DNA from: a virus
Reading direction: 5' to 3' (one strand)
DNA: 42,525 nucleotides
IMG/VR virus record: IMGVR_UViG_3300045988_020566
In this document: in pieces, positions 2,127 to 41,883 of the stretch
How the letters are laid out: the number at the start of each line of letters is the position of its first letter
Position numbering within the stretch: position 1 is the first letter of the stretch
Notes under the pieces: model-generated
The model's input: only the letters and a program-made list of their open reading frames with translations
Databases searched by the model: none
Told to the model about the DNA's origin: nothing
Translations under genes and position numbers: made by a program

Positions 2127-3014
2127 ATGAACGAAATGCAGACCTACAACAGCACCGAAGTTGTGAGCGCCAAGAGCGTGAACACCGAAATGATGATTTC
2201 CCGTCAGGCGCAGGAGGTACAGGCGGCAATGGTCGTCGCCAAGCGCTTTCCCCGTGACGAGATCGAAGCGAACAACCGCATTCTCAACGCCTGCAAGCGC
2301 AAGAGCCTTGCCGAGCGCGCGATCTATGAATATCCGCGCGGCGGCGAGAACGTGACCGGCCCCTCAATCCGTCTCGCCGAGGTCATGGCACAGAATTGGG
2401 GCAACCTCGACTTCGGCATTACCGAGCTGGAGCAGAAAAATGGCGAGAGTACCGTCATGGCCTACTGCTGGGATTTGGAGACCAACACCCGCCAGACAAA
2501 GATCTTCACCGTGCCGCATATCCGCTACACCAAGAAAGGCAGCGTTGCCCTCACCGACCCGCGCGACATCTATGAAATGGTCGCCAATCAGGGCGCGCGC
2601 CGTATGCGCGCATGCATTCTTGGCATTATCCCCGGCGACGTGGTAGACGCCGCTCTTGCGGCGTGTACCAAGACGATGATGGGAAAGAGCGATGAACCCA
2701 TGATTGACCGCGTACGCAAGATGGGACAGGCGTTCAAGGACGATTTCGGCGTACCGATGGAGTGCCTTGAAAAGTACATCGGTTGCAAGGCCGAAGCGTT
2801 CACGGCGCAGAGCATCGTGCGCCTGCGTAATGTATATACCTCACTAAAAGAGGGACGCGCGAACCGCGAGCAGTATTTTGATCTTCCGACCGTCGAAGTG
2901 GACGAAACTACAGGCGAGGTCAAGAACGAGCTGCCCGCTCCCGCTGATGCCATCGGTACGCCGGACGACGGAAAGACCGGCATTCCCAAGCAGGTGAGCA
3001 TGAATGATCTGTAA
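2127..3014 (+). CDS. single-strand annealing recombinase (RecT/Redbeta-superfamily-like)
   Basis: GAGGAGG SD. Position between DUF1351-like and MBL hydrolase genes. Motifs YEYPRGGENVTGPSIRLAE and RRMRACILGIIPGD. The family call needs a profile search. Confidence 0.6.
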   Translation: MNEMQTYNSTEVVSAKSVNTEMMISRQAQEVQAAMVVAKRFPRDEIEANNRILNACKRKSLAERAIYEYPRGGENVTGPSIRLAEVMAQNWGNLDFGITELEQKNGESTVMAYCWDLETNTRQTKIFTVPHIRYTKKGSVALTDPRDIYEMVANQGARRMRACILGIIPGDVVDAALAACTKTMMGKSDEPMIDRVRKMGQAFKDDFGVPMECLEKYIGCKAEAFTAQSIVRLRNVYTSLKEGRANREQYFDLPTVEVDETTGEVKNELPAPADAIGTPDDGKTGIPKQVSMNDL

Positions 3015-3720
3015 GGTCAAGGTCATTTCGACCGGCTCCAAGGGGAACGCCGTACTGCTGAATGATGAAATACTCATTGACTGCGGCGTTCCCTTTCGGG
3101 AACTCGAACCATACTGCAATGGGTTGAGGCTCGTCCTGCTGACGCACGTTCACGGCGACCACTTTAACCCCGAGACCATCAAGCGCCTGCACTTCCTGCG
3201 CCCTGCGCTGCGCTGGTGCGTCCCTCCGTGGCTCATGGACCCGATGGGACGCATCGGCGTGGACCGCCGCGTGACCGACGAGGGCATGGCAGGCCATGTG
3301 CTGTTCTACTCCTGTTCCCTTCTCTACCCCGTCTATGTGTCCTACAATTCCATTCCTCACGATGTTCCGAATTGTGCGTGGCATATCGAATTTGCAAACG
3401 GCGAGCGCGTGTTCTATGCGACGGACTGCGCCTCGCTGGACGGCATTGTGGCGCAGGACTACGACCTTTATCTAATCGAAGCTAACTACGGCGAAGAAGA
3501 GATACAGGAGCGCATGAAACGCAAGCTGGAGGCGGAAGAGTTCAGCTATGAGAGTCGCGCGATGGCGAGCCATCTATCCCGCGAGCAGGCGCGCGCATGG
3601 CTCGCCCAAAACGCCGCCATCGGTAAGAGCCGTGTGTTCTATCTGCACCAACACCAAGATGAGGAGGCCGCCCATGATACCTTGGGTACAAGTTTACAGC
3701 AATCTTCCGATGCACCCTAA
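3004..3720 (+). CDS. MBL-fold metallo-hydrolase (putative recombination exonuclease partner)
   Basis: HxHxDH motif (LLTHVHGDHF) after a GNAVLL...IDCG strand. Overlaps the annealase gene. Confidence 0.8.
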   Translation: MICKVKVISTGSKGNAVLLNDEILIDCGVPFRELEPYCNGLRLVLLTHVHGDHFNPETIKRLHFLRPALRWCVPPWLMDPMGRIGVDRRVTDEGMAGHVLFYSCSLLYPVYVSYNSIPHDVPNCAWHIEFANGERVFYATDCASLDGIVAQDYDLYLIEANYGEEEIQERMKRKLEAEEFSYESRAMASHLSREQARAWLAQNAAIGKSRVFYLHQHQDEEAAHDTLGTSLQQSSDAP

Positions 3721-4627: not shown

Positions 4628-5065
4628 ATGGGAATTGATATTTCTCAGCTTGGCAAAGATGCTCAAGCGCAGGTCATGGCAAAGATGGCCGTGCAGGAAG
4701 TCAAGAAGCGCAGCAAGTACGGCAACCGCAAGGTCGTGCGCGACGGCATCAAATTTGATTCAGAGCGAGAGGCGGCGCGATTCGGCGAGCTGAAAGTGCT
4801 GCGAGCGATGGGGAAGATTCGCGACCTGCGGCTGCAAGTGAATTTCACGCTCGTTGAAGGCTACACGACCATCGAAGGCAAACGCATCAAGCCGATGGTC
4901 TACCGTGCGGATTTTACCTACGAGCGGGTGACCGAGCCGGACTGCAACGGCACGGTGCGCTGGCTGCACGAGGTAGAGGACGTGAAGGGTATGAAAACGA
5001 AGGACTATCTGCTCAAAAAGAAACTGATGCAGGACAAGTACGGCATCACGATCCGCGAGGTGTGA
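4628..5065 (+). CDS. DUF1064-family protein (PD-(D/E)xK-like nuclease)
   Basis: SKYGNRKVVRDGIKFDSEREAARFGELKVL...YRADFTY...EDVKG is the DUF1064 signature. Start chosen at ATG 4628, inside ORF 4592-5065. Confidence 0.7.
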   Translation: MGIDISQLGKDAQAQVMAKMAVQEVKKRSKYGNRKVVRDGIKFDSEREAARFGELKVLRAMGKIRDLRLQVNFTLVEGYTTIEGKRIKPMVYRADFTYERVTEPDCNGTVRWLHEVEDVKGMKTKDYLLKKKLMQDKYGITIREV

Positions 5066-5066
5066 G

Positions 5067-5261
5067 ATGAGCTTTGAGCATTGCCACTTCTGCAAGCCGC
5101 CTGTGCGCTATCCCGGCTGCCAGGACCATTGCCCGTATTATGCGGAGGATATTGAGAAGGTCCGGGCAGCGAAGGCCGAAGAGAAGCGGCAGACGCAGGA
5201 GAAAGACGACTACTTGAGCGCGCGCCATTTCAAGACGCGGCGCTATCAACGACTGAAATGA
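5067..5261 (+). CDS. small Cys/His-rich protein
   Basis: 64-aa ORF with an HCHFC...GCQDHC metal-binding-like cluster and a basic C-terminus. Confidence 0.5.
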   Translation: MSFEHCHFCKPPVRYPGCQDHCPYYAEDIEKVRAAKAEEKRQTQEKDDYLSARHFKTRRYQRLK

Positions 5262-5274
5262 GGGAGCGAAAAAG

Positions 5275-5715
5275 ATGAATGTAAAAGACACTGCGGAACG
5301 AATTCGTGGGCTGAGAACTGCCGCTGGCATGAGCCAAGCGAGTTTTGCCGCCATGTGCGGCATTGAGCAAGGGCAGCTGTGCAACTACGAGATGGCGCGC
5401 ATCATGCCGACTATCCCACTGTGCGAGCGGATTTGCCGCGCCGTCGGCATCAACCTGCTCGATTTTCTGCGGGAGGATGACAAGGGAAAAAGCGGAATCC
5501 CGACCGAGAAACGCATTGGCGAGAGGGTGAAAGCCCTGCGCCTGATGCGAGGGATGAACCAAACAGAACTTGCGGAGAAGTCAGGCGTAGCGGACAGCAC
5601 GATTTCATCCATCGAGCGCGGCGAGCGATACGGTATAGTCACGACATATCTCTATCTCGCCGAAGCACTGGACGTGTCGCTTGACGCTCTGATCTACGGG
5701 GAGGAGCGCGCATGA
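5275..5715 (+). CDS. tandem XRE-type HTH transcriptional regulator
   Basis: Two HTH_3-like repeats: IRGLRTAAGMSQASFAAMCGIEQGQLCNYE and VKALRLMRGMNQTELAEKSGVADSTISSIERG. Confidence 0.8.
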   Translation: MNVKDTAERIRGLRTAAGMSQASFAAMCGIEQGQLCNYEMARIMPTIPLCERICRAVGINLLDFLREDDKGKSGIPTEKRIGERVKALRLMRGMNQTELAEKSGVADSTISSIERGERYGIVTTYLYLAEALDVSLDALIYGEERA

Positions 5716-6404
5716 ACATTGTTGCAAATATCGATTGCATGGAGGCAATGAAGAAGCTGCCGGACAAGGCTTTTGACCTCGCTGTGGTCGATCCGCCGTA
5801 TTTCAGCGGGCCGGAACGGCGTGGGTATTACGGCTGCAAGGTCAGCAAAATCGGTGTGCACAGAGACTACCCCATATCGCCGAAGTGGGATATTCCGACA
5901 CGTGAATATTTCGATGAGTTGGAACGGGTCGCAAAGCGCTATATTGTTTGGGGTTGCAACTATTTCGACTATCACTTTGCGCCGGGGCGCGTTGTTTGGG
6001 ACAAGTGCAACGAGGGTAGCTCTTTTAGCGATTGCGAGATTGCAGCTACAAACTGCCATGACAGCGTTCGGCTTTTCCGCTACATGTGGAATGGCATGAT
6101 GCAGGGCAAAAGCATCGCAGAGGGGTTTATCCAGCAAGGGAATAAGGCGCTGAACGAGCAGCGCATTCATCCGACGCAGAAGCCTGTGGCGCTTTACGTG
6201 TGGTTGCTTCAGAACTACGCCAAGCCCGGAGACAAGATACTCGATACACACCTCGGCAGCGGAAGCAGCCGCATCGCTGCATTGGAGCTTGGGCTCGATT
6301 TTGTGGGATACGAAATTGACGCACACTACTACGAAGCGCAGGAAAGGCGCTTTGAGGAATACATCTCACAAGGGAGTTTGTTTTTGTGGGAGGCGCGCGC
6401 ATGA
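5712..6404 (+). CDS. DNA methyltransferase (beta-class N6A/N4C, DPPY)
   Basis: Motif IV VVDPPYF near the N-terminus, then HPTQKP and motif I ILDTHLGSGSS near the C-terminus. Confidence 0.85.
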   Translation: MNIVANIDCMEAMKKLPDKAFDLAVVDPPYFSGPERRGYYGCKVSKIGVHRDYPISPKWDIPTREYFDELERVAKRYIVWGCNYFDYHFAPGRVVWDKCNEGSSFSDCEIAATNCHDSVRLFRYMWNGMMQGKSIAEGFIQQGNKALNEQRIHPTQKPVALYVWLLQNYAKPGDKILDTHLGSGSSRIAALELGLDFVGYEIDAHYYEAQERRFEEYISQGSLFLWEARA

Positions 6405-6655
6405 GCCGATTTGTTATGAGCAAAACGCCGTGGGAGCGCTGCCCGTATCCGGGCCTCAAAGCGGCGCTCGAAAAGACCGACTACAACCAGGCCACGCTTG
6501 CCGATGCGACCGGCATTTCGGCGACCAACGTGAGCCGGTATATCAAGGGAGACGTGGATGTGACCGTGCGGGCGTTCCTCGCGTTGGAGGATTTGACTGG
6601 GAAACCGTTTCGGGAGCTGTTCGGAGAATGCGAGGGGAGCCGTGGAAGGGTATAG
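6401..6655 (+). CDS. small HTH protein
   Basis: ATGA overlap with the methyltransferase stop. HTH-like stretch YNQATLADATGISATNVSRYIKG. Confidence 0.6.
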   Translation: MSRFVMSKTPWERCPYPGLKAALEKTDYNQATLADATGISATNVSRYIKGDVDVTVRAFLALEDLTGKPFRELFGECEGSRGRV

Positions 6656-7721
6656 CAATCAGCCGATTCCGAAAGAGGCGGCGAAACAGCTCTTAGCCCT
6701 CGATCTGGAAGACAAAGAAATCCTAACTTACGAAAAGCTCGACCAGTGGTACACCGCGTGGAACGGAAAGTGCTACGTGTCGTTCTCAGGCGGAAAGGAT
6801 AGCACGGTGCTGGTATACTTGGCAGCGCGATATCTATCAAGCTTTCGATCCCCGCCATATCCGCTGACGCTGGTATTTGTCAACACGGGGCTGGAATACC
6901 CGGAGATACAGAGGTTCGTGAACGAGTACGCGGATTGGCTGCGTGGAGAGTTCCCACGAATCACCGTTGAGCTTGTGCGGCTGCGCCCGAAGATGAATAT
7001 CCGGCAGGTGGTGCGGAAGTACGGGTATAGCATCGTGAGCAAGGAGGTTGCGGCGTATGTTGAAGAAGCAAGGGTAAAGCCTGACGGACGATCTGCGGCG
7101 CGGCTTCGCGGCGAATATTTGCGAAAGGACGGCAAACCGAGCGAATACAACTGCGAAAAGTGGGAATTTCTGCTATACGCACCATTCGCAATATCTTCAA
7201 GGTGCTGCGGAGAGATGAAAAAGAGGCCGATGAACGCCTATATGAGAAAAACGCAAAGAGTCCCTACGATGGCGACAATGGCGCAAGAAAGCCGCTTGAG
7301 AACTAAAGTTTGGCTGAAAAACGGTTGCAATGTTTTTGAAGGGAAACACCCAGCAGGGACGCCCATGAGCTTTTGGACGGAGCAAGACGTATTACGGTTT
7401 ATCGTAGACCGGCAAATCCCTATCGCAAGCGTCTACGGCGATATCGTGGCCAGCGACGGCGAGAACGACTACACCGAAACGCTGATCGACTGCAAACTAC
7501 ACTGCACGGGATGCCAGAGGACAGGGTGCATGTTCTGCGGTTTCGGCGCGCACCTCGAAAAGGGTGAAAACCGCTTCGAGCGCATGAAGCACACGCACCC
7601 GAAGCACTATGAGTTTTGCATCGGCGGAGGGGCTTACGATCCTGCTGACGGGCTATGGAAGCCCAACGAAAAGGGGCTTGGCTACGGTCGAGTGCTGGAT
7701 TTTATCGGAGTGAGGTATTGA
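6642..7721 (+). CDS. PAPS-reductase-family (PP-loop ATPase) protein with C-terminal Cys cluster
   Basis: PP-loop VSFSGGKDSTV and C-terminal cluster CKLHCTGCQRTGCMFCGFG. 359 aa. Confidence 0.85.
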   Translation: MEGYSNQPIPKEAAKQLLALDLEDKEILTYEKLDQWYTAWNGKCYVSFSGGKDSTVLVYLAARYLSSFRSPPYPLTLVFVNTGLEYPEIQRFVNEYADWLRGEFPRITVELVRLRPKMNIRQVVRKYGYSIVSKEVAAYVEEARVKPDGRSAARLRGEYLRKDGKPSEYNCEKWEFLLYAPFAISSRCCGEMKKRPMNAYMRKTQRVPTMATMAQESRLRTKVWLKNGCNVFEGKHPAGTPMSFWTEQDVLRFIVDRQIPIASVYGDIVASDGENDYTETLIDCKLHCTGCQRTGCMFCGFGAHLEKGENRFERMKHTHPKHYEFCIGGGAYDPADGLWKPNEKGLGYGRVLDFIGVRY

Positions 7722-7723
7722 TT

Positions 7724-7906
7724 TTGAACATCAGAGACACATACAGCTGGATACCCACAGCCTTTGAGGGCGCGAGCGGATTATGCAGTTTTGAAAAATT
7801 GAAAACCGTGCACGGCAGAATCGTCTACATCAACGAGGCGCACCGCTACTTTACGGCGGATGCGGATATCAACGGGAAGAATCTCAGAGAGAGTTTTAAA
7901 TTTTAA
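7724..7906 (+). CDS. hypothetical small protein
   Basis: Tail of ORF 7655-7906. A TTG at 7718 or 7724 follows ggagtgagg. The start is uncertain. Confidence 0.35.
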   Translation: MNIRDTYSWIPTAFEGASGLCSFEKLKTVHGRIVYINEAHRYFTADADINGKNLRESFKF

Positions 7907-7929
7907 CAAAAATCAGGAGGAATTTCATC

Positions 7930-8220
7930 ATGAACAACAATCAGGACTACATCGTTCGCTGCGACCGCGCAGGCGTATTTTTCGGCAAGATCAAGGAGAG
8001 AAACGGCTCCGAGGTCACCATGACGGAGGTGCGAAAGCTGTGGAGCTGGGACGGCGCGTGTGCCGTGGAGCAGTTGGCGCAGGATGGCACAAAAACACCG
8101 GGCAACTGCCGTTTTACCGTGACGGTCCCGGAGATGACCGTGCTTGGTGCGATCCAGATCATCCCGTGCACAGACACGGCATCTGCGTCTCTTCGAGGCG
8201 TAAAGGAGTGGAAGAGATGA
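7930..8220 (+). CDS. hypothetical protein
   Basis: AGGAGG SD. 96-aa ORF whose stop overlaps the next start (ATGA). Confidence 0.6.
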   Translation: MNNNQDYIVRCDRAGVFFGKIKERNGSEVTMTEVRKLWSWDGACAVEQLAQDGTKTPGNCRFTVTVPEMTVLGAIQIIPCTDTASASLRGVKEWKR

Positions 8221-9056
8221 CGCTTGACGAGAAGATCAAAGCATTTCTGACTGTGAGCTACGGCGACGGCTACGGCTACGGCTACGGCTACGGCTACGGC
8301 TCCGGCTACGGCTACGGCTACGGCGACGGCTACGGCTACGGCTACGGCTACGGCTACGGCTACGGCGACGGCTACGGCTACGGCTACGGCTCCGGCTACG
8401 GCTACGGCTACGGCTACGGCTACGGCGACGGCTACGGCTACGGCTACGGCTACGGCTCCGGCTACGGCGACGGCTACGGCTACGGCTACAGCGACGGCTA
8501 CGGCGACGGCTACGGCGACGGCTACGGCTCCGGCTACGGCTACGGCGACGGCTACGGCTACGGCTACGGCTCCGGCTCCGGCTACGGAATTAAAAGCTTC
8601 AACCGGAAAACGGTTTATCGAATTGACGGCGTAAACACGCTGATTCGTTCCGTGCGCGGAAACACTGCGCACGGGGCAATTTTGAACGGCGATTTGACGC
8701 TCACACCGTGTTATATCGTCAAGCAGGACAACATTTTTGCACACGGCGAAACGCTGCGCGAAGCAATGGAAGCGCTGCGAGACAAGCTTTTCGAGGATAT
8801 GCCGGAAGATGAGCGCATTGATGCGTTCCTGCGCGAAACAGACCGAGAGAAAGTATATCCGACACTGTATTTTTACGACTGGCATCATCGCTTGACCGGT
8901 TCGTGCGACATGGGGCGAAAGCAGTTTGCCCGTGACCACGGTGTTGACCTTGAGCACGGCATGATGACGCTGATGGAGTTTTTGGAGCTGACAAAAGACG
9001 CTTACGGAGGCGATGTGATTCGAAAAGTGATTAGTAAGATGCAGGAGGTGGAGTGA
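8217..9056 (+). CDS. Gly-Tyr repeat protein with conserved-looking globular C-terminal domain
   Basis: ATG 8217 is coupled to the previous stop. A 13-aa leader precedes 110 residues of near-perfect G-X alternation (X = Y, D or S). A 156-aa non-repetitive domain follows (…FAHGETLREAMEALRDKL…WHHRLTGSCDMGRKQF…). Confidence 0.8.
   Translation: MTLDEKIKAFLTVSYGDGYGYGYGYGYGSGYGYGYGDGYGYGYGYGYGYGDGYGYGYGSGYGYGYGYGYGDGYGYGYGYGSGYGDGYGYGYSDGYGDGYGDGYGSGYGYGDGYGYGYGSGSGYGIKSFNRKTVYRIDGVNTLIRSVRGNTAHGAILNGDLTLTPCYIVKQDNIFAHGETLREAMEALRDKLFEDMPEDERIDAFLRETDREKVYPTLYFYDWHHRLTGSCDMGRKQFARDHGVDLEHGMMTLMEFLELTKDAYGGDVIRKVISKMQEVE
8259..8588 (+). repeat. tandem hexanucleotide repeat (GGCTAC)n with interspersed GGCGAC/GGCTCC units
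   Basis: 330 bp read directly, in frame with the CDS. There is a single deviation from alternation (AGC at 8490-8492). Confidence 0.95.
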
Positions 9057-9547
9057 TGGAACGACTAACATACCGTGATAAAGACGGATTCCCGATGATG
9101 AAAAAACGTGGTGGAATCAAACAGGGAGGCGTTGAGCGCCTTGCCGCCTACGAGGACACGAGGCTGACGCCGGAAGAAGTGGCAGCTTTGGGAAGACTGT
9201 TTGATTACGCTTTGGAAGAATCTAAAACGCTGGCGGAGCAGCTTGCATTGCTCAATCGCATCCGCGAGCTGGCCGAGGCCGACAAGGACGGGCGGCTGGT
9301 GGTGCTGCCGTGCAAGGTGGGGGACACGGTGTACATGATCGAGCGCATTTTTGACATTGATAATGGCGTATGCGATGAGATATGCGCCAGAAAGGTAATA
9401 GGATACGGCGGGAACAATCTGAATAAATTGTGGCTCATAGGGAGCGGAGGCATATGCAACGTCTCTATTTTCGTTTCGGAGTTTGGCAAGACCGTATTCC
9501 TGACCCGCGAGGAGGCGGAGAAAGCCTTAAAAACAAAGGAGGGGTAA
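9053..9547 (+). CDS. hypothetical protein
   Basis: SD ggaggtgg. 164-aa ORF with motifs RLAAYEDTRLTPEEV and VLPCKVGDTVY, recalled from other Firmicutes phage hypotheticals. Confidence 0.65.
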   Translation: MMERLTYRDKDGFPMMKKRGGIKQGGVERLAAYEDTRLTPEEVAALGRLFDYALEESKTLAEQLALLNRIRELAEADKDGRLVVLPCKVGDTVYMIERIFDIDNGVCDEICARKVIGYGGNNLNKLWLIGSGGICNVSIFVSEFGKTVFLTREEAEKALKTKEG

Positions 9548-9548
9548 T

Positions 9549-10061
9549 ATGCCGCATGGTAGCGCAAGTCAGTCTGGCGAGCATAATGGCAACTATAAGC
9601 ATGGTGGGAAAGGAACAAAACTATACAACGTCTGGCGTGCTATGCGTAAGAGATGCGCCCTTAAGACTGATACGCATTATAAGCGATACGGGGGCCGAGG
9701 TATCTCGGTATGCGAAGATTGGCAAAGTTTTTTAGCGTTTAAAAAGTGGGCAGATGAGAACGGGTATAAAGAAGGCCTTACCATTGACAGGGTAGATAAT
9801 AATGGGGATTATTGCCCAGAAAATTGTCGTTGGGTTGACAGAAAAACTCAGGCAAACAATTTGGAAGTGACTGTGAAAATTAAAGTAATAGATACCGAAA
9901 AGACGTTGCATGAGTGGGCTGACTTTTTAGGTATAAACCCGTATACGTTATATGATAGGCTGAGGGCTGGATGGCCGCCAGAACGTGCTCTTTTTGAACG
10001 CGTAAGTTTAAATAAATATGAGCACCAAAAGAAAGCATTGGAGGCGATGAAGGATGAATGA
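9549..10061 (+). CDS. homing-endonuclease-like DNA-binding protein (IDRxDNxGxYxPxNCRW motif)
   Basis: AAGGAGG SD. Motifs YKRYGGRGISVCEDW and LTIDRVDNNGDYCPENCRWVDRKTQANN. Local G+C is much lower than in the flanks. Confidence 0.55.
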   Translation: MPHGSASQSGEHNGNYKHGGKGTKLYNVWRAMRKRCALKTDTHYKRYGGRGISVCEDWQSFLAFKKWADENGYKEGLTIDRVDNNGDYCPENCRWVDRKTQANNLEVTVKIKVIDTEKTLHEWADFLGINPYTLYDRLRAGWPPERALFERVSLNKYEHQKKALEAMKDE

Positions 10062-10227
10062 TTGCAAAAACATGGACTGCCCGTGGCGCTCAAACTCTAC
10101 AAGCAACCCGTACCATTGCGATATTTTCATTTGCCAGAGACGTGACGACGGAACGGTTTTGATTGCGAGCAATCACACGCTGACCAAAGACGAACTTATA
10201 GCTTTAAGGAGGGCTGAAAATGGCTGA
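10054..10227 (+). CDS. 57-aa Cys-containing peptide
   Basis: Hand-translated MNDCKNMDCPWRS...HCDIFICQRRDDG.... Overlaps both neighbours. No clear SD. Confidence 0.35.
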   Translation: MNDCKNMDCPWRSNSTSNPYHCDIFICQRRDDGTVLIASNHTLTKDELIALRRAENG

Positions 10228-10516
10228 ATACATTGAGCGCGGTGCATTTATCGAGTTGGTGAAAGATATTCCAATGTGGGGCAGCGTGGCGGCTATGTTT
10301 GCGGATAGAATCCCCGCCGCCGATGTTGCCCCGGTGGTGCATGGGCGGTGGATAGTCCGATTTGGCGGCCCATATAATCGTCGTAGATGCTATTGCTCGC
10401 ATTGCGGAAAACATAACGGGGTTGGTGGCATAGCTAAAAACCAAGAAAAGCCGTACTGCCCCAACTGCGGCGCAAAGATGGACGGAGGTGACAGCGATGA
10501 GGCTGATCGACGCTGA
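10220..10516 (+). CDS. zinc-ribbon protein
   Basis: SD aaggaggg. Motif CYCSHCG...YCPNCG. Confidence 0.65.
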   Translation: MAEYIERGAFIELVKDIPMWGSVAAMFADRIPAADVAPVVHGRWIVRFGGPYNRRRCYCSHCGKHNGVGGIAKNQEKPYCPNCGAKMDGGDSDEADRR

Positions 10517-10790
10517 TTTATTGGAAGACCAGTTTGGAATATCCGATGAAGACCTTCTTGCGCTTGACGAAATTCGACACGCTCCCACCGTTGATGCCGT
10601 GGTCGTGACGCGGTGCAAGGACTGCAAGCACAGCGCGCTGCCGTCTGAACTTCCCCAGCGATACGGGAAGCCGGGGATACTGACGTGTCACAACAGATAT
10701 TCGCCATGTAATAGACGCAACGTTGGTGAGGACGATTTTTGCAGCTACGGCGAACCGAAGGAGTCCAAAAATGCTGACGATCACGATTAA
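10497..10790 (+). CDS. Cys-rich hypothetical protein
   Basis: ORF 10488-10790, with ATG at 10497 (MRLIDADLL...). Motifs TRCKDCKH and a C-terminal Cys/His set. Confidence 0.55.
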   Translation: MRLIDADLLEDQFGISDEDLLALDEIRHAPTVDAVVVTRCKDCKHSALPSELPQRYGKPGILTCHNRYSPCNRRNVGEDDFCSYGEPKESKNADDHD

Positions 10791-10935
10791 AGCCAACGTC
10801 CCCGCCGCTGACGCGCAGGGCATCAAGGAGCGCATCGCCATGGACATTGAGCGATACGGCGATTGTAAAGTCGTGAGCGTCGTGAGCGACCGGGGACGGG
10901 AAGAACAGCTACGAATGAAAGGAGCCAAATTATGA
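10771..10935 (+). CDS. 54-aa hypothetical protein
   Basis: AAGGAG SD 7 nt before ATG 10771. Lies inside ORF 10723-10935. Confidence 0.45.
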   Translation: MLTITIKANVPAADAQGIKERIAMDIERYGDCKVVSVVSDRGREEQLRMKGAKL

Positions 10936-11321
10936 GCATCAACGTAAAGAAGTACACCAAAGACCAGATGGCGAAGATGGTGGAGGACGCGCAGGCGGAA
11001 GTGCAGGAATTAAGGCGGGTAAACGCCGCACTGACCGAGCAGATCGACCAGATGAACGGCGAGGCCATCAACAAGGCAAACGAGATCGCGAACCTGAAAG
11101 CGGACGCGGATGCGCTGCGAAACAAGCTCGCTGACACCGAGGCGGCGCTTGGGCGAGCGAATGATGAGTGCGCTTTTAAGCAAGAGGCCCTTAATGTAAT
11201 GCGCAACAGGCGCTACAACGCCGAGCAGCGCGCCGATTACGCAGAATCCCACCCGTGGCGCAATCTGTGGGCATGGGTTAAGAGAAAGATAGGTGGCGAG
11301 AGGAATGAGCACGTTTCCTGA
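10932..11321 (+). CDS. coiled-coil protein
   Basis: 129-aa ORF with heptad-like charged helices (EVQELRRVNAALTEQIDQMNGEAINKANEIANLKADADALRNKL). Confidence 0.65.
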   Translation: MSINVKKYTKDQMAKMVEDAQAEVQELRRVNAALTEQIDQMNGEAINKANEIANLKADADALRNKLADTEAALGRANDECAFKQEALNVMRNRRYNAEQRADYAESHPWRNLWAWVKRKIGGERNEHVS

Positions 11322-11523
11322 CCGCCTACGGAGGTTACGCGAACGCCAGCAGTTAAAGCGCTGCGTGCTGTCCGAGCTGTGCGGGCTGAATCGGAACACC
11401 ATCAAGCGGTATGAGATGGGGACACAGAAACCGTCAATGGACGCGCTGATAAGCATCGCCGACTATTTCGGCGTGTCGATTGATTATTTGCTCGGGCGGT
11501 CGGACTACCCGAAAAGTTTATAA
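11305..11523 (+). CDS. XRE-family HTH regulator (last gene of the early block)
   Basis: LRRLRERQQLKRCVLSELCGLNRNTIKRYEMG...ISIADYFGVSIDYLLGRSD is a typical HTH_3 with a C-terminal YLLG motif. Confidence 0.75.
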   Translation: MSTFPDRLRRLRERQQLKRCVLSELCGLNRNTIKRYEMGTQKPSMDALISIADYFGVSIDYLLGRSDYPKSL

Positions 11524-11537
11524 AAATATTTTGCAAA

Positions 11538-11555
11538 ACTCACTTATAAGTGAGT
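11538..11555. promoter_or_regulatory. 18-bp perfect palindrome ACTCACTTATAAGTGAGT
   Basis: Verified as its own reverse complement. Sits just after the HTH gene stop, at the 5' edge of the non-coding region. Confidence 0.35.
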
Positions 11556-11572
11556 CAGGGTATTGCAATTAT

Positions 11573-12215
11573 GGGAGAATTGAGCCGCAGAGGTGTAAAA
11601 GCCTTTGCGGTTCTCTCATTTATGGCGTTTACCTCCTGCGCCATAGCGGGGACGGCGCTTTTTCATCTTTTCACGCCGCTCCCGCACCATGCCGCACGCG
11701 CGATGCAGCCCACAATCAGGGCCGAGAGGTCGCACCTCTCATGCGGCACAGGGCCCCGCGCACCTCTCAACGATGTGTCCCAGCGGGGACATTTAGGGGC
11801 GAATGTTCCAAGGCTGGCGAGGCGGTCTCCAAAACCGCTTGGGTGGGTTCGATTCCCAACCGTCCCTGCCAACTCTAAACGGAGTCACCAACGGAGTATA
11901 AACAAGTGGGGTAACCGTGGGAACCGGAGATATACGGCATAGGTGCCCCGTAAGGGGAGACCACAGCGAGTGACGGGGACTTTCCCTGAAGCGCTAAAGC
12001 AGGGCAGGACTGCAATGCCGTACCAAAAGAGGAGAGCCGCTGCCTTTGGCAATGGGCAAAGCCCGCCTGAAAGTGCGGCAATAATGGTTCGCGTGAGCAT
12101 GGGGTGAGCGATTAAATCAGGCCAAATCGGTGACAACACCGGGCGAGCCTGAGCTAGTAAGTGTATGCCCTTCGGGGCGGGTAAATTCTGCTATGTAAGG
12201 CCAAGGGGCGGGGGC
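11573..12215 (+). ncRNA. large structured non-coding RNA candidate (ROOL/GOLLD-class or novel); boundaries approximate
   Basis: 727-bp gap before terS with no credible ORF. Stacked hairpins were folded by hand (11573-11617, 11621-11645, 11646-11685, 11690-11748, 11775-11792, 11942-11962 GUAA loop, 12001-12046, 12048-12067, 12117-12152, 12167-12178 UUCG loop). Confidence 0.5.
11795..11871 (+). tRNA. tRNA-Trp(CCA)-like element, non-canonical (possibly a module of the large RNA)
   Basis: 77 nt. A 7-bp acceptor (AGGGGCG/CGTCCCT), G discriminator and encoded CCA. A 5-bp anticodon stem with loop CUCCAAA, and a T-loop GGGTTCGATTCCC. However, the D-arm cannot be folded and the T-stem has a mismatch or an extra C. 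Confidence 0.4.
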
Positions 12216-12250
12216 TGGTAGCAAAAATGTGACAAGAGAGGTGGTGATGA

Positions 12251-12622
12251 GTGCCATTAACAGCAAAGCAAGAGAGATTTGTGCAAGAGTACCTTGTGGA
12301 CTTAAATGCCACTCAGGCCGCCGCGAGAGCCGGTTACAAGAATGCTGAAAAGGGTAGGCAGTTAGTTACGAATAGTAACGTTTCGGCTGCTATCCAGAAG
12401 GCAAAGGCAGAAAGACAGAAACGAACGGAAGTAACGCAGGACTATGTTATAGAAAAACTCAAAGAAATCGCAGACAAGCCTGCGTCTGATTGCACGGAAA
12501 GCGATTTGAAATATGCGAATAAGCTAAAAGCGCTTGAAATGTTGGCGAAGCATACGGGTGTGTTCGACAAGCAAGACAACGCAAGCGCTGATTCCGTTGT
12601 CAAGGTAATTATCGATGTCTGA
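12251..12622 (+). CDS. terS: terminase small subunit
   Basis: LTAKQERFVQEYLVDLNATQAAARAGY is the Terminase_2-type HTH signature. GTG start after gagaggtgg. Overlaps terL. Confidence 0.85.
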   Translation: MPLTAKQERFVQEYLVDLNATQAAARAGYKNAEKGRQLVTNSNVSAAIQKAKAERQKRTEVTQDYVIEKLKEIADKPASDCTESDLKYANKLKALEMLAKHTGVFDKQDNASADSVVKVIIDV

Positions 12623-13853
12623 CATTCGTTTATCCGAGAAAATCGGCCCTGCGTTTTACGATATCGCGCATGATGTTTTTCGTCACGGGCACACGCATTA
12701 CGACTTTAGCGGTGGGCGCGGTTCGCTGAAATCGTCTACAGTATCAATTCTTGTACCGCTTTTACTGGTTTCCAATCCGGGAACGCACGCGCTTGTGCTG
12801 CGCAAGGTGGCAAACACGATCCGCGATAGCGTGTATGCGCAGTATATTTGGGCAATCAGTGAGCTGGGCATGGCGGCGTATTGGGAAGCCAAGGTTTCCC
12901 CGATGGAGCTGATTTATAAGCCAACAGGGCAGAAGATCATGTTCCGGGGCGCTGACGATCCCATGAAGATCAAGTCTATCAAGGTTCCGTTCGGCTATAT
13001 CGCCGTAACGCACTTTGAAGAGAAAGACCAGTTTGCCGGACGCGCGGAAATCCGAAATATTTTGCAGTCGACCATGCGCGGCGGCTCGGTGTTTTGGAAT
13101 TTTGAGAGCTACAACCCGCCGATTTCGCGCGACAACTGGGCGAACAAGGACAGTTTGGAAGAGCGCGCTGACCGGCTGTGCCACAAGTCAACGTACTTGC
13201 AAGCCCCGCCAGAGTGGCTTGGTGAGCAGTTTTTAGCGGAGGCGGAACATCTCAAGGCCACGGACGAGAGAGCGTACCAGCATGAGTATTTGGGCATTCC
13301 TGTGGGCACGGGCGGCAACGTGTTTGACAAGCTGGAACTGCGGGAAATTACCGATGAAGAAGTCAAAAGTTTTGACCGCATCTATCAAGGGGTGGACTTC
13401 GGCTGGTTTCCTGACCCATTCGCTTTTATCCGCCTGCATTATGACAGAGCGAGAGAGACGATATATCTGCTGGACGAGATTTATCAAAATAAGCTATCTA
13501 ACGAGCAGAGCGCGAACATGATAAAGCAATACGGATATAACAATATTCGGACAATCTGCGACAGCGCAGAACCGAAGAGCGTTGCAGATCTCCGCGCGAT
13601 GGGGCTACCTGCGTATGAAGCGGTAAAAGGCCCCGGCTCGGTGGAATACGGCATGAAGTTTTTACAGCGGAGAACAATCGTCATTGACAGGCGACGCACA
13701 CCAAACGCTTACAATGAGTTTGTAGGATACGAATACGAACGAAACAAAGACGGCGACATTATCAGCGGCTACCCTGACGCGAACAACCATTTGATTGACG
13801 CGACGAGGTATGCGTTAGAGCCTGTCAGCCGCAGAATGGGAGTTATTGCATGA
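12615..13853 (+). CDS. terL: terminase large subunit (PBSX/Terminase_3-like)
   Basis: Walker A-like GGRGSLKSST. 412 aa, lying between terS and the portal gene. Confidence 0.9.
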   Translation: MSDIRLSEKIGPAFYDIAHDVFRHGHTHYDFSGGRGSLKSSTVSILVPLLLVSNPGTHALVLRKVANTIRDSVYAQYIWAISELGMAAYWEAKVSPMELIYKPTGQKIMFRGADDPMKIKSIKVPFGYIAVTHFEEKDQFAGRAEIRNILQSTMRGGSVFWNFESYNPPISRDNWANKDSLEERADRLCHKSTYLQAPPEWLGEQFLAEAEHLKATDERAYQHEYLGIPVGTGGNVFDKLELREITDEEVKSFDRIYQGVDFGWFPDPFAFIRLHYDRARETIYLLDEIYQNKLSNEQSANMIKQYGYNNIRTICDSAEPKSVADLRAMGLPAYEAVKGPGSVEYGMKFLQRRTIVIDRRRTPNAYNEFVGYEYERNKDGDIISGYPDANNHLIDATRYALEPVSRRMGVIA

Positions 13854-35667: not shown

Positions 35668-36093
35668 ATGGCATATCCCTATTTCAATCCCTATTATCCG
35701 CAGCCAATACCGGACAACCTCATGCAGATGCGGCAGATGCAGCAGCCACAGATGCAGCCCATGCAGCAGCCAGTGCAACAGAACCCCATCGCGCAGGGCG
35801 GCGTGCAGTGGGTCAACGGAGAGCAGGAGGCGAGGGGCTATCTCATCGCGCCCAACTCTGCTGTGGCGCTGTGGGATAGCTCCGCACCGACGGTATACCT
35901 CAAGCAGTCCGACGCGAGCGGCAAGCCGACGCTCAAGATTTATGACCTCGTAGAACGCGCAGAAACGCCCCGTACAGCGCCGCAGGAGAAGGGCGTGGAA
36001 TTTGTCACCCGAAAAGAGTTTGACGCGCTGGCGGCACTTGTGGGCGAGCTGAAGGGCAAGAAGAAGCGCAAGGAGGACGATGACGATGAATAA
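35668..36093 (+). CDS. Pro/Gln-rich N-terminus + globular domain protein
   Basis: SD acggagg. Start MAYPYFNPYYPQPIPDNLMQMRQMQQPQMQPMQQPVQQNP, then GGVQWVNGEQEARGYLIAPNSAVALWD..., then a KKKRKEDDDDE tail. Confidence 0.6.
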   Translation: MAYPYFNPYYPQPIPDNLMQMRQMQQPQMQPMQQPVQQNPIAQGGVQWVNGEQEARGYLIAPNSAVALWDSSAPTVYLKQSDASGKPTLKIYDLVERAETPRTAPQEKGVEFVTRKEFDALAALVGELKGKKKRKEDDDDE

Positions 36094-38748: not shown

Positions 38749-38782
38749 TTGCAGATGAATTGCAGATGAAATTACAGATGAA
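38749..38782 (+). repeat. three tandem TTRCAGATGAA arm-type repeats (right of attP core)
   Basis: ttgcagatgaa (38749-59), ttgcagatgaa (38760-70) and attacagatgaa (38771-82). The last copy overlaps the integrase stop codon. Confidence 0.6.
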
Positions 38783-39785
38783 ATTCGGATTCAAAAAAGC
38801 CGTCAACGGCATCTGCCACTGCTACGGCTTTATCATTCATCGTGTGCTGATATACGTTTTTTAGCATGTTGTTTGTAGAGTGCCCCATGCGCTCCATTGC
38901 ATATTTGTCTGGGACATTGAGCCTGAGCATGACCGACGCATTTACATGCCGGAGGTCGTGAAAGCGGAACGGCGAAACTCCACAGCGGGCACACGCGCGT
39001 TGCAGATGCTTATACAGGACATTTCTGGTTGCATGGACAATATACTCATCTGTGCGCGGTGTTGCTTCAATCAGCCCCATAATATACGGCGGCACTTTCA
39101 GCTTTCTGTTGCCGCTGTAAGTTTTTGGCTGCTTGAGCTGCGGACCGTCCTCACCGTCTACCATTGCTTGCCTGATCGTTAATATATCGCCGTCAAGACA
39201 ATCCCATGTCAGACCTCTGATCTCCGATGTACGGAGGCCGAGCCAGACAGCCAGCAGGAAAGGCAATTCAAAATCTGTGCCTTTGCAGTCTTCGTGCAGA
39301 ATTCTGATCTCGTCCATGGTAGGGATTTTAATTTTAGGCGCTTCCTTCTGCGGGAGTGATATGCGGAACACCTTATCGGGACATTCCTCCGACATTGCCG
39401 CCGTGAATAGGCCGTAAGCGTTGCGGACATACTTAGGGGACTTTTCCCGCGCCATCTTATTCACGGCACGCTGCACGCGATCCTGCGTCAACGCGGAGCA
39501 CTTAACGCTTATCAGCTCGGGGAAAACCACCTTGCGTAGTTTTCTGTACCCGTTCACGGTGGAGGGGGAAAGTATCGCGTCCTTGCTATCGATATATCGG
39601 TCAATAGCGTCGCCGACCGTTCGCTCAGACGCACGAGCGGCAGACTTTGCGCCGGACTTCAATGCGGCGGCTTCATTCTCCGCTTGCCGCTTGGTAGGAG
39701 CTGTGACGGACACACGCTTTCCGTCTACCATGACGCTAACGTTCCAGTTCCCCGATGGCAGTAGTTTTGCTTTTGGTATTTTCAT
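38772..39785 (-). CDS. int: tyrosine integrase
   Basis: C-terminal catalytic signature FHDLRHVNASVML...MGHSTNNMLKNVYQH. Start MKIPKAKLLPSGNW at ATG 39785, overlapping the upstream stop by 1 nt. Confidence 0.9.
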   Translation of the reverse strand: MKIPKAKLLPSGNWNVSVMVDGKRVSVTAPTKRQAENEAAALKSGAKSAARASERTVGDAIDRYIDSKDAILSPSTVNGYRKLRKVVFPELISVKCSALTQDRVQRAVNKMAREKSPKYVRNAYGLFTAAMSEECPDKVFRISLPQKEAPKIKIPTMDEIRILHEDCKGTDFELPFLLAVWLGLRTSEIRGLTWDCLDGDILTIRQAMVDGEDGPQLKQPKTYSGNRKLKVPPYIMGLIEATPRTDEYIVHATRNVLYKHLQRACARCGVSPFRFHDLRHVNASVMLRLNVPDKYAMERMGHSTNNMLKNVYQHTMNDKAVAVADAVDGFFESEFHL

Positions 39786-40201
39786 CAAATCCCCCTCCAA
39801 AATCCGTAATCTATGCAGTGGAAATCAATGTACACGCACCACGCGGCCAGAAAGACGATAATGACAAACATTATAGCAATCACGCCGTTGCGGATACGCA
39901 CGCCGCGCCGCATGATCTCGATGGTATCGGCCTTTGCGTCAACGTGTCGTTCCAACTCGTCGTTACGCGCCTGTAAGGTTTCCTCGGCTGGCGTCAAGTG
40001 TTCGGAAATGCCGAACACTTCATCAAGAGAGATGCCAAGCACTTTGCAAATCGCAGCGACTGTGTAAACTGATGGGGACTTAGATGCGCGGGAGAAAAAA
40101 TTTTTTACTGTTTGCAACGGTAATCCTGCTTTGTCGGCAATATCTTGATGCGTTAGTCTTAACAAGTCTTTTTGCTCCTGACATCGTTTCTGAATGTTCA
40201 C
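39785..40201 (-). CDS. membrane-anchored XRE-family HTH regulator (candidate prophage repressor)
   Basis: GTG start. HTH LTHQDIADKAGLPLQTVKNFFSR, a helical linker, and a C-terminal TM helix GVIAIMFVIIVFLAAWCVYI. Confidence 0.8.
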   Translation of the reverse strand: MNIQKRCQEQKDLLRLTHQDIADKAGLPLQTVKNFFSRASKSPSVYTVAAICKVLGISLDEVFGISEHLTPAEETLQARNDELERHVDAKADTIEIMRRGVRIRNGVIAIMFVIIVFLAAWCVYIDFHCIDYGFWRGI

Positions 40202-40998: not shown

Positions 40999-41811
40999 TT
41001 ACATATCCTTGTTTTGTGACAAAACCGTGAGGTCTTCGCAGTCCCACAGGACTACGTTTAATTCTTCTGCCAAAATCTTAGCGGCTTTTGTATACACGCT
41101 GTTTGTAACGACAACTGCAACATGAGAATCGTAATGCTCTTTTGCTGCGTAAATTTGCTGCACCGCTTCAATTCCAACTTGTCCTGAGTAGTATTTGCAT
41201 TGAAACGCATATCGCACATCTGTTTTCTCGGCAAGAATATCGGCTCCGAAATCCTGCGACTTTTTTGTTACCTCGACCTTCTCATAGCCGTTTTTTATAA
41301 GCAGATTGGCAACGTAGCTTTCAAACTCATACCCATCAATAGACAGTTTGAACTTTTGGAATTTGTTTGCGTCGGCAAGTATTTCGTCGAATACTTCGCT
41401 TTCTTTTTTCTCCATCCGAGAGACCCAGTCTATAATTTTGTATTCCGCAGCCATAAGGCCGGCTTTTTTCGCCGATAAGGATTTTATTTCCTCTTGCAGC
41501 TTTATAGAATCCGCTTTTAACGTAGCTTTTTCTTCTTTGGCCTCTCGCACAACATCTTCTTTTACTCGCGCCTTTAATGTGGATTCGAATTCGTCCAAAT
41601 CCTCTTTGCGTTTAGATAGTTTGGCTTCTTTTTCAGAAAGGGCTCTATCACGCTCACGCAATTCCTTCTGATAATCTTGCAGCATAATTCTATATTCGCG
41701 GCTTTTAGCAAAATGCCGCTGGACAGAGCGCTCGGTTTCTGCGAGTGCTTTTTCTTTTTCAGAAAAGTTTTCTTCGACGTATTTTTTTATTTGCTTATCA
41801 AATAGCGCCAT
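40999..41811 (-). CDS. coiled-coil + Mrr-cat (restriction-endonuclease fold) protein
   Basis: About 150 aa of charged coiled coil, then FESYVANLLIKNGYEKVEVTKKSQDFGADILAEK...AFQCKYYSGQVGIEAVQQ...VVTNSVYTKAA (D...QCK core of Mrr_cat). Low G+C. Confidence 0.8.
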   Translation of the reverse strand: MALFDKQIKKYVEENFSEKEKALAETERSVQRHFAKSREYRIMLQDYQKELRERDRALSEKEAKLSKRKEDLDEFESTLKARVKEDVVREAKEEKATLKADSIKLQEEIKSLSAKKAGLMAAEYKIIDWVSRMEKKESEVFDEILADANKFQKFKLSIDGYEFESYVANLLIKNGYEKVEVTKKSQDFGADILAEKTDVRYAFQCKYYSGQVGIEAVQQIYAAKEHYDSHVAVVVTNSVYTKAAKILAEELNVVLWDCEDLTVLSQNKDM

Positions 41812-41883
41812 TGCCAAACCCTCACAAAGGAGAAAGAAAAAATTGTGCAAAGCGTAAAATCCGATGTTTCACCGGATAACCGA

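Follow-up and report, generated by a model that had tools for sequence, protein, structure and literature searches.

The presence of a near-perfect alternation of glycine and tyrosine codons within a gene of a bacterial virus raises the question of whether such an array is genuine and translated, and, if so, what kind of protein it belongs to. The array in question is located in a 42,525-nucleotide viral sequence (IMG/VR record IMGVR_UViG_3300045988_020566, hereafter the window), where it forms part of an ORF at positions 8217-9056 (+) encoding 279 amino acids. A sequence-only reading of this ORF had described a 110-residue array encoded by a GGCTAC hexanucleotide repeat and placed between a short leader and a normal-looking domain, and this observation was confirmed, with two small corrections: the leader comprises 14 residues rather than 13, and the C-terminal domain 155 rather than 156. 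Tandem Repeats Finder returned a single array at 8257-8587 (period 6, 55.2 copies, 90% matches), and the corresponding residues 15-124 (8259-8588) represent 55 X-Gly dipeptides, in which X is Tyr (TAC) forty times, Asp (GAC) nine times and Ser (TCC) six times, while Gly is encoded by GGC 53 times and by GGA once. In terms of hexamers, the array consists of TACGGC (38 copies), GACGGC (nine), TCCGGC (six), TACAGC (one) and TACGGA (one), the single break in the alternation being an AGC (Ser) codon in a Gly position at 8490-8492 (residue 92). The 15-nt motif GGCTACGGCKMCGGC, allowing one mismatch, occurs 52 times in the window, all at 8256-8582, against a chance expectation of 0.02.

Both gene junctions of this ORF overlap. 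The start codon is shared with the stop of the upstream ORF (7930-8220) in the form of ATGA at 8217-8220, a Shine-Dalgarno-like AAGGAG is located at 8203-8208, i.e., 8 nt before the ATG and inside the end of the upstream gene, while the stop codon TGA at 9054-9056 overlaps the ATG at 9056 (or GTG at 9053) of the next ORF. The longest exact internal repeat of the array is 59 bp and no k-mer of 77 or more is repeated, so that the array can be assembled from short reads; however, 19 of 80 related IMG/VR contigs end inside their array, and thus, while the existence of the array is secure, the exact number of 55 units, which rests on the assembled sequence alone, remains in doubt.

The window resembles a whole temperate siphovirus genome, in which replication and recombination genes, a DNA methyltransferase gene and a PAPS-reductase/DndC-like gene (1.2-7.7 kb) are followed by the gene pair studied here, an HNH endonuclease gene, the terminase (12615), portal, capsid, tape measure and tail genes, and an integrase gene at 38772-39800 on the minus strand. 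Its closest relatives are uncultured human-gut phages, and the closest contigs among the genome records are those of Oscillospiraceae and Oscillibacter metagenome-assembled genomes.

To establish whether the array is an integral part of the protein, homologues of the ORF were collected. The C-terminal domain alone retrieved 2,064 proteins and a profile of diverse members 4,926, and at 50% identity there are 740 clusters. The domain-bearing family has at least 4,900 protein clusters, mostly from phages and prophages of gut Oscillospirales. Nearly all full-length members share a single plan, namely a short conserved N-terminal helix (M-E/T-x-L-x-x-K-I-K-x-F-L), an in-frame Gly-rich X-Gly region of very different lengths, and the domain. 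The leader in the window, MTLDEKIKAFLTVS (8217-8258), is predicted to form a short helix (residues 3-11), and its Phe10 and Leu11 are invariant in 53 homologues. The possibility that the true start lies downstream of the repeat, which had been named beforehand as a condition that would overturn the sequence-only reading, was thereby excluded, and the array is, as judged from these comparisons, in frame and translated.

The proposal that the hexamer array is prone to slipped-strand length variation was likewise supported, and the polymorphism is extreme. Among 80 IMG/VR loci whose domains are 90-100% identical to that of the window, 61 complete arrays span 9 to 115 amino acids, with a median of 49, and a BFVD entry with a 90% identical domain is 352 amino acids long. 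Four loci show no difference from the window over the 465 nt of the domain and are about 99% identical downstream, yet carry 33 or 22 units in a different order, as compared to 55 here. Within an array, essentially one codon per residue is used. In the window, GGC accounts for 53 of 54 Gly codons and TAC for 40 of 40 Tyr codons, against 49% and 51%, respectively, in the rest of the genome, while across 81 related arrays GGC represents 1834 of 1887 Gly, TAC 663 of 664 Tyr, GAC 462 of 462 Asp and TCC 691 of 702 Ser codons, as opposed to 43%, 48%, 64% and 25%, respectively, in the adjacent domain of the same phages, where 23% of conserved-residue codons differ synonymously between pairs. The arrays are therefore constantly rebuilt from a few 6-bp unit types, which is what replication slippage or unequal exchange produces.

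In 80 more distant genome loci and 74 further viral loci each array is again codon-homogeneous, the median share of the dominant Gly codon being 98%, whereas lineages differ in the synonymous codon that they employ, i.e., at wobble positions only (GGC 63, GGT 6, GGG 4 and GGA 1; TAC 44 and TAT 14; GAC 38 and GAT 9; TCC 29 and TCT 10), with first and second codon positions being held. The wobble base of the X codons follows the GC content of the flanks, being T in 16 of 23 arrays below 40% GC and C in 21 of 22 arrays at 60% GC or above. The X residues are Ser (31%), Tyr (28%) and Asp (23%), with Asn, Phe, Cys and His as minor components. All of these are single-step neighbours of TAY, although the transversion products Asp and Ser dominate over the transition products His and Cys, each of which is present at no more than 1.4%, a pattern that argues for selection on residue type. 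These findings point to rapid 6-bp slippage with selection on protein composition (Gly plus Tyr, Ser or Asp) and disfavour a purely DNA-level role, although Gly stays GGC even in AT-rich genomes and the same three hexamers recur across phyla, so that a constraint at the nucleic acid level is not excluded.

The main new result concerns the upstream gene, which the sequence-only reading had missed. The ORF at 7930-8220 (+) encodes a 96-residue DUF6948 protein (Pfam PF22253, 85.2 bits against a cut-off of 27), and a DUF6948 gene lies directly upstream of the repeat gene in 66 of 80 diverse genome loci and in 61 of 80 viral loci. No other neighbour is conserved: an SSB gene lies upstream in only about 8 of 84 loci; the PAPS-reductase-like gene, considered as a partner in view of a possible tyrosine sulfation, occurs in 3 of 80 diverse loci; and the downstream gene at 9056-9547 (+) (phrog_38832, of unknown function) is present in only 6 of 80 diverse loci. 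When searches were extended outward from DUF6948, phage GenBank records from other phyla were also found to carry it, and in all seven records inspected (six named phages and one uncultured podovirus) the next ORF encodes a stand-alone Gly-X repeat protein with no folded domain. These records are those of Pectobacterium phage Koroua (89 aa), Ralstonia phage NK-7 (137 aa, annotated as a 'fibroin heavy chain-like protein'), Dickeya phage Setonix, Vibrio phage IKEMa6-1, Iodobacter phage PhiPLPE (where the ORF is unannotated), Chlorobiaceae phage CV-1-33 (where it is annotated in the wrong frame) and the uncultured podovirus MW202898. Two Neisseria gonorrhoeae chromosomes, retrieved from the plasmid collection, each possess three DUF6948 matches, and the one locus inspected in each is followed by a Gly-Asn/Tyr/Asp/Ser array, while Monoglobus pectinilyticus possesses the fused form. 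No DNA-level homologue of the Pectobacterium cassette was found in E. coli genomes.

Of 80 diverse IMG/VR DUF6948 loci, 77 carry a Gly-X ORF, usually stand-alone with no folded domain, starting about 5-520 nt downstream, mostly within about 200 nt, and the remaining three contigs end 1-114 nt after DUF6948. The gene in the window, in which a DUF6948 gene lies directly upstream on the same strand, is therefore the domain-fused variant of a two-gene cassette in which the repeat, and not the C-terminal domain, is the conserved partner of DUF6948, a point that had not been recognized from the sequence alone. The sequence-only view that such an array is very unusual in a phage early gene was not supported, since Gly-X arrays next to DUF6948 are among the commonest uncharacterized phage cassettes. 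DUF6948 has at least 7,987 protein clusters, none of which carries a functional name, and no paper on DUF6948, on the repeat sequences in phages or on 'fibroin heavy chain-like' phage proteins was found in the literature searched, from which subscription-only papers could have been missed. The constant pairing of DUF6948 with a downstream Gly-X repeat gene was worked out in the current analysis and was not found in any source searched.

The C-terminal domain (8589-9053) was modelled by AlphaFold2 with 46 homologues at a mean pLDDT of 93.7, and is predicted to consist of five strands followed by helices. Conserved positions (domain numbering) include Asp13, Cys41, His52, Lys66, Thr-Gly-Ser-Cys 103-106 and Gly-Arg 109-110, of which His52, Thr103, Gly104, Cys106 and Gly109, together with Gly53, are invariant, and the full-length similarity of the family includes the FAHG-x-T and WH-x-x-LTGSC-x-x-GR motifs. 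A Foldseek search returned no solved structure (best E 0.23, TM of 0.23 or less) and, in BFVD, only homologues with other N-terminal parts, while single-sequence and profile searches of the PDB returned only chance-level hits (E of 0.1 or higher). Searches of Pfam, PHROGs, NCBIfam and PADLOC, with the domain alone or over 31 diverse members, returned nothing consistent; among PADLOC models the domain produced only DrmC at E = 0.049 and DUF6948 no hit. In the full-length model, residues 14-123 exhibit a pLDDT of 22-27 and no secondary structure, the first ten residues of the leader a pLDDT of about 86, and the domain, which is unchanged, above 90. In Riemerella phages the same domain follows leucine-rich repeats instead of an array, with no DUF6948 detected by BLAST, suggesting that the array, like the leucine-rich repeats, is a targeting or interaction module for this domain.

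Taken together, ORF 8217-9056 is best explained as a genuine, translated gene at the end of the early/replication module of a temperate siphovirus, probably of Oscillospiraceae, representing the domain-fused form of a widespread cassette in which a small DUF6948 protein gene is followed, often with overlapping stop and start codons, by a gene for a Gly-X dipeptide-repeat polypeptide, defined by Gly at every second residue with X mostly Tyr, Ser or Asp and almost no basic or aliphatic residues, a definition that the array in the window fulfils. In this view, the repeat is an intrinsically disordered, acidic, tyrosine-studded chain whose length and unit order turn over much faster than point substitution, through gain and loss of 6-bp units that always preserve the frame, while selection holds only the composition. 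It most likely works as a multivalent, composition-dependent interaction module, with repeat number setting valency or reach, probably acting together with DUF6948 (whose invariant residues include two Arg and two Trp), and in this lineage carrying along a 155-residue globular domain as lineage-specific cargo. The reality of the array, selection on its reading frame, slippage and concerted evolution, the prediction of disorder and the conservation of the cassette are established by the analysis, whereas the physical partnership with DUF6948, deduced only from conserved adjacency and coupling, and multivalent binding as the function are inferences, as no experiment or annotation gives a function to DUF6948, the array or the domain. 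This explanation is held with only moderate confidence, since other frames of the arrays are usually open too and the very wide range of tolerated lengths would also fit a nearly neutral spacer.

The interpretation offered by the sequence-only reading is therefore partly supported: translation and slippage hold, while its suggestions of condensate formation, Tyr cross-linking or decoy functions remain conjectural, with AlphaFold predicting only disorder. A more far-reaching and tentative possibility is that the gene pair represents a previously unrecognized system found in phages of several bacterial phyla, in which a small beta-rich protein with invariant Arg and Trp residues would bind a disordered Tyr/Asp/Ser-Gly polypeptide whose valency would be tuned continuously by hexanucleotide slippage, to serve as an evolvable scaffold or condensate, or as a polyanionic decoy deployed early in infection, with lineage-specific cargo domains attached. 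If the cassette is a functional unit, it is one of the most widespread uncharacterized phage gene pairs, present in gut, soil and water phages and in prophages of a human pathogen, and it would be an unusual case in which selection keeps only the composition of a protein while a microsatellite rewrites its length on the timescale of strain divergence. Tractable hosts exist (Pectobacterium, Ralstonia, Vibrio and Neisseria), so that the question is open to direct testing.

Of the alternative explanations, two survive about equally well, although both are considered unlikely. The array may be a passive, nearly neutral and slippage-prone linker between the leader helix and the C-terminal domain, its composition constrained only by solubility and avoidance of stop codons; this would fit the predicted disorder, the variation in length from 9 to over 115 amino acids among close relatives with no sign of an optimum, and the fact that all X residues are single-nucleotide neighbours of TAY. 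However, in most lineages the array is the whole protein, with nothing to link, its Ser/Tyr/Asp composition is held across phyla and codon backgrounds and against mutational expectation, and its adjacency to DUF6948 is strictly conserved. Alternatively, the array may drive homotypic self-assembly into condensates, cross-beta fibrils or dityrosine-linked material, in the manner of FUS-type low-complexity domains or silk. There are indeed many [G/S]Y[G/S]-type motifs within a region predicted to be disordered, the array in the window is unusually Tyr-rich (40 of 55 X positions, with runs of up to six pure Gly-Tyr units), and a modelling study, reportedly corroborated by experimental observations, describes fibrillar self-assembly of GYGYGYG heptapeptides (PMC8163036). 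Against this, most arrays of the family are dominated by Ser and Asp, some being almost pure Gly-Asp, and such chains are highly charged and poor self-associators, while no strands are predicted and no oxidase or peroxidase is part of the cassette.

It is very unlikely that the hexamer array is a cis-acting DNA or RNA element (iterons, an origin, or a binding array for DUF6948) with an incidental ORF. The perfectly homogeneous units, the recurrence of the same GGC-NNC hexamers in phages of different phyla, the retention of GGC in AT-rich genomes, the position in the replication/recombination region and the several open frames are compatible with such a role, yet variation between lineages is restricted to third positions of the Gly-X frame and follows genome GC, the start codon, ribosome-binding site and conserved leader peptides lie in that frame, stand-alone ORFs stop right after the array, and more than 4,900 protein clusters fuse the array in frame to a folded domain. 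An assembly artefact is highly improbable, for although contigs end inside the array as described above, about 20 of 80 DUF6948 contigs end just after that gene and repeats are known to defeat NGS assembly in phages (PMC8309999), thousands of independent assemblies carry such arrays, as do GenBank genome records of isolated phages and complete N. gonorrhoeae chromosome records, leaving only the exact unit count in doubt.

Comparison with known systems revealed resemblances of composition or architecture. FUS-type prion-like low-complexity domains ([G/S]Y[G/S] stickers with Gly/Ser spacers) share the Gly, Ser and Tyr composition, predicted disorder and many evenly spaced tyrosines, but here the repeat has a strict period of two residues, Asp in place of Gln, a pure hexanucleotide microsatellite as its coding sequence and a bacterial virus context, any phase separation being hypothetical. 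The Ser-Asp repeat (R) regions of staphylococcal ClfA/Sdr surface proteins are likewise disordered acidic dipeptide repeats of highly variable length, encoded by short DNA repeats, attached to a folded domain and changing length in frame, yet those are secreted, wall-anchored stalks, whereas here there is no signal peptide or anchor, Gly occupies every second position, and the setting is a cytoplasmic phage early gene with a DUF6948 partner. Silk fibroin (GAGAGS/GAGAGY) and the designed, prion-inspired GYGYGYG peptides (PMC8163036) share the alternating Gly-X sequence, but no beta structure is predicted here and the Asp content is high, the resemblance being compositional and not one of homology. 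Glycine-rich disordered tethers (filamentous-phage g3p linkers, colicin N-terminal translocation domains and the SSB disordered linker) also join a Gly-rich disordered segment to a folded domain, but are not strict dipeptide microsatellites, are not hypervariable between near-identical genomes, and do not exist as stand-alone genes paired with a conserved partner.

Several further identities were considered and rejected. A diversity-generating retroelement variable region, which would require adenine-specific substitutions against a template copy and no length change, is not consistent with the repeat motif occurring only inside the array, nor with variation by gain and loss of units plus T-to-G and A-to-C unit types; furthermore, no reverse transcriptase appeared among the ORFs scanned, in a scan that was not exhaustive. 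The period of 2 residues (6 nt) and the absence of a hydrophobic position exclude RTX calcium-binding nonapeptide repeats (GGXGXDXUX), while glycine-rich polyproline-II helix bundles, such as the snow-flea antifreeze protein and the phage S16 adhesin tip (PMC8409303), have Gly at every third residue or poly-Gly runs and a compact fold, whereas Gly falls here at every second residue and AlphaFold gives no compact structure. A HicB/UPF0150 antitoxin-like fold, suggested by the FAHGETLxEA motif of the domain, was dropped, as hhalign against an approximate E. coli HicB sequence gave a probability of 5% over 20 columns, only one member in 31 gave a weak PF21748 hit (E = 0.087), and no HicB was present among the Foldseek hits. 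In a promoter and terminator scan of positions 5000-12700, counts did not exceed those of shuffled sequence.

The arrays also have practical consequences, in that they break metagenomic phage assemblies, are missed or read in the wrong frame by annotators, and attract misleading names: in addition to 'fibroin heavy chain-like', source databases carry 'Lamprin' and 'Serglycin', and one homologue is automatically named 'colicin E3' on account of its Gly-rich disordered segment. In the window itself, an antisense 374-residue ORF at 7947-9071 (-) reads (Ala-Val)n, and is a by-product of the hexamer repeat rather than a gene, other frames of such arrays usually lacking stop codons.

In the genome of Iodobacter phage PhiPLPE (EU876853), the Gly-X repeat ORF that follows DUF6948 (at about 1190-1460) is unannotated, while in Chlorobiaceae phage CV-1-33 the corresponding ORF (2774-3019) is annotated in the wrong frame, i.e., as MAMAMALAMA... 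instead of MDGINYGYGDGDG.... The same frame confusion inside arrays is shown by several database proteins, for example the entries designated P0141 and L126. A few DUF6948-linked arrays (those of loci L250, L284 and L299) were found to have other partner residues, being composed of Gly-Pro/Gly-Thr runs or of an apparent Met/Leu-Gly run, and these represent either true variants or a different reading frame. With regard to the start of the repeat gene in the window, its frame stays open upstream to an ATG at 7860, giving a 398-aa ORF (7860-9056, plus strand) that overlaps DUF6948, and some database gene calls (e.g., protein P0111 and locus L078) use this extended start; however, the conserved leader and the ribosome-binding site favour a start at 8217.

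Among the two sets of IMG/VR contigs examined (L004-L083 and L248-L327), about a quarter end inside or just before the repeat array, and most DUF6948 database entries also sit on very short contigs. The arrays appear to be systematic break points of metagenomic phage assemblies. Two N. gonorrhoeae records, CP119142 and CP119140, each of 2.17 Mb, are listed in the plasmid collection but are chromosomes, and each has three DUF6948 matches. In the single locus inspected per record, the two arrays differ by one unit and several residues, while the flanks are 98% identical, although these two loci may not be orthologous.

Of the genes surrounding the cassette in the window, a PAPS-reductase/PP-loop protein (6642-7721, plus strand) with weak BrxP, SspD and DndC-like matches lies next to a DNA methyltransferase (5712-6404, plus strand), and the two may represent a DNA-modification pair, which is not conserved with the repeat cassette. 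An HNH endonuclease (phrog_3377; 9549-10061, plus strand) is located just downstream of the cassette, and is present in only 9 of 80 close relatives, so that it is probably a mobile insertion. At the lysogeny end of the genome, a protein with an Mrr-like restriction endonuclease domain (40999-41850, minus strand) lies near the integrase (38772-39800, minus strand), and it may represent a prophage-carried defence gene. Finally, two short tandem repeats were identified in the window, one of 24 bp x2 at 35725-35772 and one of 11-12 bp x3 at 38749-38785, the second of which lies next to the end of the integrase gene and could be related to the attachment site.
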